From the IMG/VR virus record IMGVR_UViG_2513020041_000003: a stretch of DNA of 3,166 nucleotides; one strand, 5' to 3'. This DNA is from a virus (lineage: Duplodnaviria; Heunggongvirae; Uroviricota; Caudoviricetes). The notes beneath the pieces are model-generated. The model was not told the origin of the DNA. It did no database searches and worked only from the letters and a program-made list of their open reading frames with translations. The position numbers and the translations under genes were made by a program. Below are positions 1 through 3,166 of this stretch, one piece after another (position 1 is the stretch's first letter; the number at the start of each line of letters is the position of its first letter).

Positions 1-144
1 GCTGCTTATCTGTCTGATAGTGTTAACCAGTTGCGTGCCGAAGCAAAAAAATATGCCATACGCAAACCCGCTGATGAGCGGGTTTTGTGCTTTAAATGGG
101 GCAATGGTAATGTTGAATCTCATCCCGGGACTCATGTCTGTTAA
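1..144 (+). CDS. Rz-like i-spanin C-terminal coding fragment, 5' end outside the window (or a remnant copy)
   Basis: Nt 1-20 are identical to nt 3147-3166 and in the same codon phase as the Rz ORF at the 3' end. Translation from nt 1 reads AAYLSDSVNQLRAEAKKYAIRKPADERVLCFKWGNGNVESHPGTHVC*, which is coiled-coil-like at first. The frame reads through a terminator-like hairpin at 64-93, so the true coding end is uncertain and may be near nt 63. Confidence 0.4.
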   Translation, partial: AAYLSDSVNQLRAEAKKYAIRKPADERVLCFKWGNGNVESHPGTHVC

Positions 145-163
145 CTTATTATTTAGCTGGTGA
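2..163 (+). CDS. Rz1-like o-spanin lipoprotein frame (lipobox and mature region), 5' end outside the window or a remnant
   Basis: The +1 frame relative to Rz encodes LLICLIVLTSCVPKQKNMPYANP..., with lipobox L-T-S-C (Cys codon 32-34) and a Pro-containing mature region. This continues the signal-peptide start [18 protein letters not shown] found at 3112-3166. Downstream of ~nt 63 the frame crosses the hairpin and becomes hydrophobic, so the end is uncertain. Confidence 0.4.
   Translation: MLICLIVLTSCVPKQKNMPYANPLMSGFCALNGAMVMLNLIPGLMSVNLLFSW
64..93 (+). terminator. Terminator-like hairpin, plus-strand orientation
   Basis: Perfect 9-bp stem AAACCCGCT (64-72) / AGCGGGTTT (77-85) with loop GATG, followed by the T-rich stretch TGTGCTTT. 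It lies inside the formally open spanin frames. Confidence 0.45.
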
Positions 164-378
164 CTTGGTTATTTGCCTGATGTTTAAAATGTTTTCTTCC
201 AGTACAATGTCCCTAAACACAATGAGTCTGCTTATTATATTATTAGCAGAGCTATTACGGCCAAAGTACAGCATAAGCTTTTAAAGCCAATCAACCAGTC
301 ATCAAGACAGACGGGGTTATTCATAAAAACTCTCCATGTGTGATCCGATGGGGCCTGAAATTAAAGCTTTAATATAGC

Positions 379-591
379 TCATGAAAGGTAAACATTGGCA
401 GCTGAAGGGCCACGCAGACCATTTATCCGGCAAAATTCCACGCGTAATCCGGTGGTAATTTCTTCTGCATCGCGGAGATTGAGCGCTGAAACATGAAGCT
501 GGACATCGATACGACCATCGGATGGGGTGATAAGACCCTTGCCGCTTTTGCCGTCAAAGGTTTTGACAATTCCTGTCATTTTACGGGACAA
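379..591 (-). CDS. cspF: Cold-shock protein, CspF/CspH subfamily (70 aa)
   Basis: The 70-aa product has the cold-shock-domain hallmarks ([14 protein letters not shown]-terminus, [20 protein letters not shown]-terminus). The apparent start codon is TTG at 589-591, preceded by AAGGA with a 6-nt spacer and an in-frame TAA four codons upstream. The first ATG is 4 codons downstream (577-579). It is divergent from cspB, as I recall for Qin. Confidence 0.85.
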
Positions 592-891
592 AAAAATTCC
601 TTAATACTGATAACTTGGCGCACTATACACACGTTCCTGAAGAAAGCTATAGTTTTTTGATGGGGTTGAAGATGGCTGGATGTCTAAAATAAACATTGCT
701 TCATATGTTCAACTATGCGTTAATGATTGCGTCGGTTTGAAGAACAGACGATATACGAAGTAGTTTACTAAAGCAGTTCTCATTTCAGGTGTTATTCACT
801 TATTCCTTCTTTGAGTCTCTCCAATTAAGTACGAAGTCGTTTCTGTTATGCAAACCATTTATGCCGAAAGGCTCAAGTTAAGGAATGTAGA
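592..891. promoter_or_regulatory. Divergent cspF/cspB control region (promoters and long 5' UTRs, not mapped precisely)
   Basis: A 300-bp AT-rich intergenic region lies between the two divergently transcribed csp genes. Both genes share the ribosome-binding context TTAAGGAAT about 6 nt before the start codon. Csp-family mRNAs are known to have long 5' UTRs. No confident -35/-10 assignment could be made. Confidence 0.35.
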
Positions 892-1107
892 ATGTCAAAT
901 AAAATGACTGGTTTAGTAAAATGGTTTAACGCTGATAAAGGTTTCGGCTTTATTTCTCCTGTTGATGGTAGTAAAGATGTGTTTGTGCATTTTTCTGCGA
1001 TTCAGAATGATAATTATCGAACCTTATTTGAAGGTCAAAAGGTTACCTTCTCTATAGAGAGTGGTGCTAAAGGTCCTGCAGCAGCAAATGTCATCATTAC
1101 TGATTAA
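892..1107 (+). CDS. cspB: Cold-shock protein CspB-like (71 aa, CspA family)
   Basis: ATG start at 892 with AAGGAA (880-885) 6 nt upstream. The product [38 protein letters not shown]... carries the RNP1-like KGFGFI and RNP2-like VFVHF motifs of the CspA family. Confidence 0.92.
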
Positions 1108-1218
1108 AATTCATCGCTCGTCTGTATACGATAACGAAGAAGGCTGATGCCTGAGTAGAGATACGGACAGAGTAGTGAATATTGGATCTCTTTAATAAAA
1201 AGTAAGGAGGTCCAATAC

Positions 1219-1254
1219 ATGAAACAATGGCTAGCATATTTGGCAAAATCTTAA
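1219..1254 (+). CDS. Candidate 11-codon small ORF (MKQWLAYLAKS) behind a consensus Shine-Dalgarno
   Basis: TAAGGAGGT at 1203-1211, an 8-nt spacer, ATG at 1219 and TAA at 1252. No homology is recognised. It could be a leader peptide, a small protein, or a chance motif. Confidence 0.2.
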   Translation: MKQWLAYLAKS

Positions 1255-1388
1255 TCAGGAAAAGTATGCTAACCATTGTGGTGAAGTGCAGGTTTGCTGC
1301 ATGAATAGTTTTACAGCAGAAGCTAACTGCTGGCATGGCAAAACAAAGTGCGTAAGTGGATGACTCCCACAAAAAGCACCACAATCTC

Positions 1389-1416
1389 AAACCCGCTCAG
1401 GCGGGTTTTTTATTAT
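1389..1416 (+). terminator. Rho-independent terminator, probably bidirectional
   Basis: Stem AAACCCGC (1389-1396) / GCGGGTTT (1401-1408), loop TCAG, then a T-tract TTTTTTATTAT on the plus strand. On the minus strand the same stem is followed by TTTGAG, a weaker tract. It sits between the cspB-side unit and the convergent zinc-ribbon ORF. Confidence 0.7.
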
Positions 1417-1470
1417 CTGCTTTAAATATATTATTAAAATATAAAAAATACTTGTTACTAATAAAATCAA

Positions 1471-1641
1471 TCAGGCTACAGCTTTAAGATTTGTCTGGAA
1501 TACTTTGTTGCAATGAGGGCAGATCAAAAGGGCACCTTTTTGTACTCTTGAAAAACTGTGTTCTGACTCTTGGGTGCAGTTTGGGCAGGAACATTTAACG
1601 AGATAATTACGGCGTGATTTTGAGTTTTTACGTTCTGACAT
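1471..1641 (-). CDS. Small C4 zinc-ribbon protein (56 aa; alternative 73-aa form from ATG at 1690-1692)
   Basis: MSERKNSKSRRNYLVKCSCPNCTQESEHSFSRVQKGALLICPHCNKVFQTNLKAVA has CxxC-x18-CxxC and a basic N-terminus. The internal ATG (1639-1641) is preceded by AGGAAAAG with a ~7-nt spacer, whereas the upstream ATG lacks a good SD and adds a hydrophobic 17-aa extension. It may correspond to a small putative zinc-binding protein annotated in K-12 Qin (ynfU, if I recall correctly), but I cannot verify that. Confidence 0.55.
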   Translation of the reverse strand: MSERKNSKSRRNYLVKCSCPNCTQESEHSFSRVQKGALLICPHCNKVFQTNLKAVA

Positions 1642-1860
1642 AGGCTTTTCCTGTATAAATGGCCGTATACAGTACACTAAATATGAAAACATTTCTCGTA
1701 TTATTATTTTATATATGACTTTCTTTCAAAATAATTACCCACATTTTTAATGTGTATGTTTTTTTAGCGCCGTTGAGAACAACGTGTGCTGTCAAAACTA
1801 CCCCGTAGACTCCGATCTTTTCAAACATATTGCACCATCCGTGTACATCGGGGTGAGGAT

Positions 1861-2076
1861 ATGAAATCAATGGATAAGTTAACAACAGGTGTTGCCTATG
1901 GCACATCGGCGGGTAATGCTGGTTTCTGGGCATTGCAGTTACTCGATAAAGTAACTCCGTCACAGTGGGCTGCAATCGGTGTGCTGGGTAGCCTGGTTTT
2001 TGGCCTGCTGACGTATCTGACAAATCTTTATTTCAAGATTAAAGAAGACAGGCGTAAGGCTGCGAGAGGAGAGTAA
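1861..2076 (+). CDS. essQ: Class II pinholin, phage 21 S-type (71 aa) with dual-start motif
   Basis: N-terminus MKSMDK gives two in-frame starts (Met1 at 1861, Met4 at 1870), as in the S21 antiholin/holin pair. It has two predicted TMDs ([19 protein letters not shown], Gly/Ala-rich; [23 protein letters not shown]) and a charged C-terminal tail [24 protein letters not shown] purine tract lies immediately upstream. The gene name is by remembered synteny with K-12 Qin. Confidence 0.9.
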
Positions 2077-2080
2077 TCCA

Positions 2081-2388
2081 ATGACTCAAGACTATGAACT
2101 GGTTGTGAAAGGAGTCCGTAATTTTGAGAATAAAGTTACGGTAACTGTAGCCTTACAGGACAAAGAACGCTTTGACGGTGAAATTTTTGACCTGGATGTC
2201 GCCATGGACCGTGTTGAAGGAGCTGCGCTGGAGTTTTATGAGGCAGCAGCCAGAAGGAGCGTCCGGCAAGTCTTCCTGGAAGTAGCAGAAAAATTGTCAG
2301 AAAAAGTTGAGTCTTATCTGCAGCATCAGTACTCCTTTAAGATTGAAAATCCTGCCAATAAGCACGAGCGTCCTCATCATAAATATCT

Positions 2389-2392
<4 letters not shown>
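2081..2392 (+). CDS. ydfR: DUF1327-family protein (YdfR-like, 103 aa), function unknown, inside the lysis cassette
   Basis: ATG at 2081 lies 4 nt after the holin stop, with AGAGGAGAG 7 nt upstream. The product is acidic and soluble with no TMD. Its stop (TGA 2390-2392) overlaps the endolysin start (ATG 2389-2391) as ATGA. The position between essQ and rrrQ matches what I recall of Qin. Confidence 0.85.

Positions 2393-3166
<774 letters not shown>

Follow-up and report, generated by a model that had tools for sequence, protein, structure and literature searches.

To our knowledge, the regulation of cold-shock protein (csp) genes has so far been explained almost entirely through 5′ untranslated regions (UTRs). 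Functional RNA structures located at the 3′ end of a gene are known from other systems. The sib element of phage lambda, which retroregulates int, is one long hairpin that is cut by RNase III and whose effect depends on N antitermination. Small RNAs (sRNAs) derived from enterobacterial 3′ UTRs, such as CpxQ, SroC, and DapZ, are short and Hfq-bound, with a single-stranded seed and a terminator as their 3′ end. The tRNA-like 3′-end processing signals include the MALAT1 mascRNA and RNase P substrates such as the C4 RNA of phages P1 and P7. Here, we describe an RNA element downstream of the cold-shock gene cspB in IMG/VR virus record IMGVR_UViG_2513020041_000003 (Caudoviricetes), a stretch of 3,166 nucleotides (nt) hereafter called the window. 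Positions 1108–1416, which begin directly after the cspB stop codon and which we refer to as the cspB tail, very probably form a real, conserved, noncoding RNA structure. In function, the element appears to resemble most closely the 3′-located stability devices, such as lambda sib, and the 3′-UTR-derived RNAs; it has the defining features of neither.

Over positions 64–3166, the window shows 100% identity to one uninterrupted piece of the Qin cryptic prophage of Escherichia coli K-12, and this Qin segment was found in 1640 of 5426 complete E. coli genomes. An earlier inspection of the letters by a model (the sequence-only reading) had seen no conventional gene between the cspB stop codon and a downstream terminator. 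The annotations agree, as the cspB–ynfU interval holds 0 annotated features in either NC_000913.3 (MG1655) or the PGAP annotation of K-12. On the cspB (plus) strand, 1108–1416 folds at −105.2 kcal/mol, compared with −71.2 ± 5.4 kcal/mol for shuffled sequences (z = −6.3). The fold comprises, from 5′ to 3′, Element A, hairpin B, a single-stranded linker, hairpin H1, a four-way junction, and an intrinsic terminator where the sequence-only reading had placed one (Table 1). Homologues were collected by pattern scans of viral, genome, and metagenome collections, which yielded more than 200 loci that were deduplicated to 60 and then to 47 core sequences. Among the 47 distinct sequences of H1 and the junction, 93.3% of cells form a standard pair, and 15 of the 39 pairs carry changes on both sides; the counts are similar with 60 sequences. 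None of 500 shuffles reached this paired fraction or the covariation score (0/500), and sliding the 3′ partners reduced the paired fraction to 27–55%. Taken separately, H1 has 88% of cells paired and changes on both sides in 5 of its 12 pairs. On the opposite strand, 89.3% of cells would pair; the cells include 137 G·U against 64 A·C.

Independent folding leads to the same architecture. RNAalifold run without a supplied structure recovers P1, P2, P3, P5, and the core of H1, and when the Qin, PHB10, and Kosakonia versions are folded singly, each minimum free energy (MFE) structure contains the same four-way junction. Identity to the window is 77–85% in the junction and 72–81% in the cspB coding sequence, and it falls to 38–66% in the flanks. 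The unpaired strands of the junction (GAA, UGAAnAGU, AAAGUGCGUAAG, and AAAAGC) are invariant or nearly so. The hairpin CAGCAG-aagctaa-CTGCTG (1314–1332), singled out by the sequence-only reading, is present and constitutes one arm of the junction, P3. Positions 1308–1310 can form three pairs with 1362–1364 in the P5 loop in 47 of 47 sequences, through one-sided changes only, and we tentatively propose a tertiary contact between them. A covariance model of H1 and the junction detected one copy per locus at 98–176 bits; with filters off, it found no match near the K-12 cspH–cspG locus or cspI. A search with RNAduplex for pairing between the junction and the cspB 5′ UTR gave only long, loose, nonhomologous duplexes.

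Element A covaries as well. In 22 distinct sequences, 87% of its cells are paired and eight of the nine outer-stem pairs have changed on both sides, with a covariation score of 0.473 versus 0.206 for shuffled and at most 0.093 for slid alignments. The Qin, Cyrano, Klebsiella-type, Kosakonia, Kluyvera, and Phytobacter lineages have Element A; the PHB10/Enterobacter lineage does not. The invariant internal loop, CGAUAACGAAGA opposite GAGUAGA, holds AGUA opposite GAA, which we take to be the signature of a sarcin-ricin/loop-E (bulged-G) motif. Motifs of this kind often serve as protein-binding or tertiary-contact modules.

Table 1. Positions of the RNA elements, reading frame, and genes of the window (position 1 is its first letter)
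Feature	Positions	Strand	Description
Element A	1120–1168	+	Outer stem 1120–1128/1160–1168; inner hairpin 1141–1144/1149–1152
Element A internal loop, invariant	1129–1140 opposite 1153–1159	+	CGAUAACGAAGA opposite GAGUAGA; from alignment
Hairpin B	1181–1216	+	14-bp stem, −16.4 kcal/mol, fold z = −6.7
Single-stranded linker	1217–1228	+	Mapped 3′ ends; conserved pattern A-Y-A-W-Y just before H1
11-codon reading frame MKQWLAYLAKS	1219–1254	+	Overlaps 5′ arm and loop of H1
H1	1229–1274	+	12-bp stem 1229–1240/1263–1274; variable loop; conserved C·A mismatch at third pair
Four-way junction	1275–1385	+	Covariation, RNAalifold, MFE folds
P1	1275–1283/1377–1385	+	Four-way junction
P2	1286–1291/1297–1302	+	Four-way junction
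P3	1314–1319/1327–1332	+	Four-way junction; invariant loop AAGCUAA
P5	1356–1360/1366–1370	+	Four-way junction
Intrinsic terminator	1389–1414	+	8-bp stem 1389–1408 (5 G–C pairs), then T run (TTTATT); bidirectional in form
cspF	379–591	−	Annotation
cspB coding sequence	892–1107	+	Annotation; TAA stop 1105–1107
ynfU (zinc-ribbon small protein)	1471–1641	−	Convergent neighbor of cspB

The distribution of the element connects it to cspB. BLAST against phage records found the distal half again, at 75–82% identity, behind csp genes in phage PHB10 and in phage-plasmid Cyrano, two unrelated elements. A CspB-based search for related loci returned only 100%-identical Qin copies. Chromosomal copies come from Escherichia, Shigella, Enterobacter, Kluyvera, Kosakonia, Phytobacter, and Pseudescherichia, and nonmobilizable plasmids of ~100 kb carry the module in Escherichia, Klebsiella, Citrobacter, and Enterobacter, as do phages. 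Three unrelated kinds of carrier are represented: Qin-like lambdoid prophages, PHB10-like phages, and SSU5-like phage-plasmids. In the checked loci with an intact upstream flank, the core lies 116–221 nt after the stop codon of a cspB-like gene (64–100% amino acid identity) and on the same strand. The exceptions to this linkage are a rearranged locus (L080), a decayed one (L143), and copies truncated where the locus ends. Upstream there is usually a divergent cspF-like gene. Most prophage loci also have a ynfU-like gene, which is located either downstream in convergent orientation or ~1 kb off, on the far side of cspF; the phage-plasmids lack both cspF and ynfU. The fixed position behind a cspB-like gene, with cspF and ynfU not always present, indicates that the RNA is tied to cspB itself. 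The suggestion of a long structured cspB 3′ UTR is thus strongly supported by covariation in Element A, H1, and the four-way junction, together with orientation and proximity to a cspB-like gene.

Several individual loci merit description. In L080 (~2919–2990), a rearrangement junction falls inside H1, with unrelated sequence upstream of AACCATTGTGG and an intact four-way junction. In Escherichia sp. E1V33 (L138, 7466–7660), the cspB stop codon is 116 nt from the motif, unrelated sequence replaces hairpin B and H1, and the four-way junction is again intact. The copy at L143 (7729–7891) is degenerate, with a broken P2. In Cyrano (OV696614; L004, 2130–2336), an unannotated csp gene ~85% identical to CspB lies between hicB and dnaE; the same csp sequence is annotated as cspG on plasmid records, among them the 108,379-bp plasmid of E. 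coli LF82, which is as long as the Cyrano record. The YnfU-like zinc-ribbon proteins have a basic N terminus. Given that ynfU-like genes occupy two alternative positions in most prophage loci, YnfU is a candidate RNA partner, with the qualification that the phage-plasmid version lacks ynfU.

Comparison with described RNAs places the cspB tail outside existing families. Rfam 15 scans (the whole window, and the core in two lineages) gave no family at its gathering score within 1108–1416. The best matches there, Trp_leader at 21.7 bits (gathering score, 41) and isrK at 18.3 bits (gathering score, 50), were driven by the terminator and did not recur in the PHB10 homologue. A literature search by gene names, RIL-seq-style names, and invariant motifs found no description of the element. 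The cspB 5′ UTR and coding sequence do match the Rfam cspA thermoregulator (RF01766) at 158.8 bits over 731–1123. The cspB tail shares with that RNA its gene family and the control of csp expression through mRNA structure or stability; the thermoregulator, however, spans the 5′ UTR and coding sequence, whereas the cspB-tail structures lie wholly 3′ of the stop codon, outside the RF01766 model, and are absent from the K-12 cspG and cspI loci. The final hairpin of the Rfam model, which follows the coding region, is deleted in the cspB alignment, and this fits a history in which cspB would have exchanged a short 3′ end for a long structured one.

Other comparisons show partial likeness. Similar to the CpxQ, SroC, and DapZ type of sRNA, the cspB tail originates from an mRNA 3′ end, has a conserved distal UTR, and shares the mRNA terminator, but it is a 157-nt hairpin plus junction, has no 3′ end listed at the terminator, and is unnamed in the RIL-seq table that was searched. 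As with lambda sib, a phage RNA structure downstream of a gene is proposed to govern how stable the preceding message is, by way of nuclease action and 3′ exonuclease trimming; unlike sib, the fold has several domains. The tRNA-like processing signals likewise consist of a compact multihelix fold past the mature 3′ end and leave an upstream RNA that ends in a protective structure, whereas the cspB tail has no detected tRNA-like features (ARAGORN reports 0 genes in the window, and at 11 and 23 nt the linkers of the junction are too long for a cloverleaf) and no consistent RCCA-type tail. Hairpin B recalls FourU and ROSE thermometers in pairing a U-rich strand, with G·U pairs, to a Shine-Dalgarno (SD) sequence; it scores 16.6 bits against a gathering score of 60 (E ~0.9), however, and is a 14-bp stem in a 3′ UTR before an open reading frame (ORF) that is not conserved. 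Compensatory changes exceed those in shuffled and slid controls and no ORF is conserved, as expected of a conserved structured noncoding RNA. We classify the cspB tail as a new family among the conserved structured RNA motifs of bacterial and phage UTRs.

Published Term-seq data from E. coli K-12 place discrete RNA ends within this region. A window position x is converted to its minus-strand coordinate in NC_000913.3 as 1642446 − x, a conversion verified against the flanking sequence printed in the Term-seq table (PMC7815308). A 3′ end at 1641226(−) is listed with 604,404 reads in LB at an optical density (OD) of 0.4, and one at 1641224(−) with 1,233,565 reads in LB at OD 2.0 and 2,464,295 reads in M63 (Adams et al. 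2021, PMC7815308, supplementary file 1). For scale, most of the entries for the minus strand on the table's first page have ~23,000–300,000 reads (PMC7815308). These ends correspond to window U1220 and A1222, 4–6 nt downstream of hairpin B and 7–9 nt upstream of H1, and in the three growth conditions they are the only curated 3′ end on the cspB strand between the cspB coding sequence and ynfU. On the same strand, no end is listed at 164102x–164104x in the three conditions, in lists that are curated and thresholded such that weak ends would drop out. The sequence-only reading had called for a search for discrete ends in 1108–1416; the dominant 3′ end in K-12 lies at 1220/1222, and none is listed at the terminator. 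An opposite-strand 3′ end is listed at 1641060, where the ynfU mRNA ends at window position 1386, abutting P1 of the junction; this indicates that the terminator works for the ynfU strand. A terminator hairpin with a U tail is found in the Qin and Cyrano types; in the PHB10/Enterobacter and Kosakonia types, P1 is followed by no more than a U-rich stretch.

In E. coli, 3′ ends that arise by Rho-dependent termination or endonuclease cleavage are shortened as far as the closest stable hairpin, and csp mRNAs are controlled mainly through their stability. Both agree with a reading of 1108–1416 as a cis-acting 3′ UTR module for the 3′-end formation and stability of cspB, with the junction as a recognition element, to which we assign a probability of roughly 0.5. 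The primary cspB transcript would extend to the intrinsic terminator and would then be cleaved within the conserved single-stranded linker or shortened as far as it. Hairpin B would stop 3′ exonucleases and so cap and protect the upstream RNA, after which the distal domain (H1 and the junction) would be removed. H1 and the four-way junction may form a recognition module for a factor that sets the rate of processing, either a nuclease or an RNA-binding protein, perhaps in a temperature-dependent manner. The region would thereby be a retroregulator of cspB expression. Hairpin B itself probably blocks 3′ exonucleases and caps the mature RNA. Its position just upstream of the linker is occupied by a hairpin with unrelated sequence in the folds of the Cyrano and Klebsiella-type (L104) versions.

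Several considerations weigh against this cis-acting model or the evidence beneath it. The invariant junction loops suggest a specific, still putative, partner or ligand. That the distal domain affects the cspB mRNA level is a link that we infer. The PHB10/Enterobacter lineage has neither Element A nor a canonical terminator, which means that some parts can be missing in some settings. The Term-seq cultures were grown at 37°C rather than in the cold, and the abundant RNA with its 3′ end at 1220/1222 may be a short piece instead of the mRNA. As for the structure itself, several of the double changes are single events common to many sequences. The alignment covers only about five Enterobacteriaceae lineages, and many double changes are consequently shared by descent; the shuffle control ignores shared descent, a shortcoming that the slid control and the independent folds help to offset. 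The wobble-pair evidence for the strand also appears modest and would be weak if it stood alone.

It is also possible, if unlikely, that one or two trans-acting sRNAs arise from the cspB 3′ UTR. The pieces would be a proximal RNA of ~115 nt (Element A and hairpin B, ending at 1220/1222) and a distal RNA of ~190 nt (H1, junction, and terminator), in which invariant single-stranded stretches such as AAAGUGCGUAAG or the AAGCUAA loop would base-pair with targets or titrate a protein by binding it. Given the instability of csp mRNAs, full-length cspB mRNA is expected to be scarce at 37°C, the temperature at which the discrete and very abundant 3′ end at 1220/1222 was seen in three conditions. Invariant unpaired segments beside covarying stems would likewise suit an sRNA, as would the terminator hairpin and U tail of the Qin and Cyrano types. 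However, with no cspB-strand end at the terminator in the thresholded lists, the distal RNA seems not to accumulate in the tested conditions. No conserved promoter precedes H1, where the sequence differs wholly between lineages, and there is no sigma-70-like site on the plus strand within 1108–1416. The region is also unnamed in the Hfq RIL-seq sRNA-prediction tables of the one paper checked, by name (Bar et al. 2021, PMC8175672), whose supplementary tables list cspF.cspB.IGR and the cspB coding sequence only, with no cspB–essQ entry found.

The position of the mapped end, precise, abundant, and 7–9 nt upstream of a complex conserved fold, invites another explanation, in which the fold itself directs the cut. 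We regard it as improbable that H1 and the junction represent a new functional RNA class, a self-processing or nuclease- or protein-recruiting element that sets the csp 3′ end. If that were true, a new RNA class on enterobacterial phages and phage-plasmids would set the stability and cold induction of the preceding csp message. The specific forms of this idea are distinctly improbable: a new ribozyme that cleaves itself off immediately upstream, or a tRNA-like “punctuation” element as a substrate of RNase P or RNase E. Invariant junction nucleotides are a feature of catalytic and ligand-binding RNAs, the topology of a closing helix and three hairpins resembles a cloverleaf, and a conserved linker motif precedes H1. 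On the other hand, no ribozyme or tRNA-like family of Rfam 15 matches, even at E values up to 10, ARAGORN finds 0 tRNA-like genes in the window, and exonuclease trimming alone leaves a 3′ end a few nucleotides after a stable hairpin. Term-seq ligates 3′-OH ends and self-cleavage leaves a 2′,3′-cyclic phosphate, which also argues against a self-cleaved product.

The sequence-only reading had further drawn attention to an SD-like sequence, TAAGGAGGT, followed by an ATG and 11 codons. All of these are present. TAAGGAGGT, a perfect 9-nt SD sequence, lies at 1203–1211 and occurs once in the window (0.01 expected, from 200 shuffles), the start codon at 1219 follows 7 nt after it, and the in-frame TAA (1252–1254) falls in the H1 loop. 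Translation of this ORF, either into a functional peptide or as a leader-peptide-style device in which ribosomes passing through the 5′ arm of H1 remodel the downstream RNA, is nevertheless very unlikely. The SD sequence, ATG, and frame are retained in nearly all Qin-type copies. TAAGGAGGT is the 3′ arm of hairpin B, and in the predicted fold the SD is wholly base-paired within this −16.4 kcal/mol hairpin. Outside the Qin-type lineage, both the SD and the ATG are missing from every lineage that keeps the downstream RNA structure; the homologous place reads ATCGAC in phage Cyrano, ATCATT in phage PHB10, and TTCTTA or similar in the Kosakonia, Kluyvera, and Phytobacter types. Within the Qin-type lineage, the conservation analysis of the 11 codons that the sequence-only reading had proposed turned up only replacements (L5P, K10I, S11T, and A9V) and one nonsense allele (W4stop), giving the versions MKQWLAYLAKS, MKQWPAYLAKS, MKQWPAYLAIT, MKQWPAYLVIT, and a truncated MKQ-stop. 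No variant combines a shared peptide with an altered SD or start context. In some Qin-type alleles, GGAGG has become GGAGA, which turns a G·U pair of hairpin B into A–U and so improves the hairpin while weakening the SD. Because the mapped 3′ end falls within or just after the ATG, the dominant RNA does not contain the ORF; read-through transcripts may still be weakly translated. The ribosome-profiling supplement of the Stringer et al. preprint has no entry for the peptide, its coordinates, cspB, or ynfU, nor for any coordinate nearby, and so speaks neither for nor against translation. The relatives keep the RNA structure and not the reading frame, and the 11-codon ORF is almost certainly a by-product of a structural hairpin rather than a gene. 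No reading frame on either strand stays open across lineages. A 97-codon minus-strand ORF (1097–1390, TTG start) corresponds to a hypothetical protein that is annotated in phage PhiR42_1 opposite the entire structured region; it was rejected as most likely spurious, given its stops in other lineages.

That the conservation comes from the opposite strand or from DNA, as a convergent ynfU 3′ UTR or terminator or as a protein-binding or recombination site, is highly improbable: many loci do have a ynfU-like gene convergent with the element, folding of the reverse complement is likewise good (z = −4.7), and the conserved C·A mismatch of H1 is a G·U pair on the other strand, but orientation and distance are fixed to cspB whereas ynfU varies in position or is absent, the K-12 ynfU mRNA stops at 1386, before the junction, more cells pair on the plus strand (137 G·U versus 64 A·C), and compensatory changes point to RNA pairing. 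With the terminator of the Qin and Cyrano types added to the fixed orientation to cspB rather than ynfU, the ynfU end, and the G·U excess, the evidence favors the cspB strand.

The remainder of the window showed further features. Its gene order is cspF, cspB, ynfU, essQ, ydfR, rrrQ, and the first half of rzpQ. Relative to MG1655, the window is circularly permuted: positions 1–63 continue the rzpQ frame from its end, and positions 1–20 repeat 3147–3166. The breakpoint is at 63/64, beyond which the sequence is that of the terminator region following the antiterminator gene ydfT/quuQ. As this junction is absent from K-12, the window derives either from an assembly product, circular or tandem, or from a 3146-bp duplication or circle that really exists. 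Positions 66–90, past the Q-like antiterminator gene, hold a terminator hairpin, AAACCCGCTGATGAGCGGGTTTT, with a stem that resembles the cspB/ynfU terminator and a Term-seq 3′ end at NC_000913.3 1642356(−), window position 90. It is probably a tR′-type terminator of a short late-promoter transcript. A second 3′ end, at 1642188(−) (window position 258), is listed only for LB at OD 2.0 and follows a hairpin at ~225–254; this hairpin and 3′ end (225–258) are antisense to ynfS, a small gene of the minus strand (window 235–324).

The well-annotated E. coli K-12 genome thus still holds an unannotated, multidomain RNA of ~270 nt that is supported by covariation, missing from Rfam, and coincident with an orphan RNA 3′ end that ranks among the stronger ones of a published Term-seq data set. 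For the search for small ORFs, the locus offers a caution in that a perfect SD sequence, good spacing, and an ATG can arise as the arm of a structural hairpin. The travel of the cspB tail with csp genes on three kinds of mobile element argues for a role in the expression of phage-borne cold-shock proteins. The element also provides a testable case of csp mRNA control based in the 3′ UTR.

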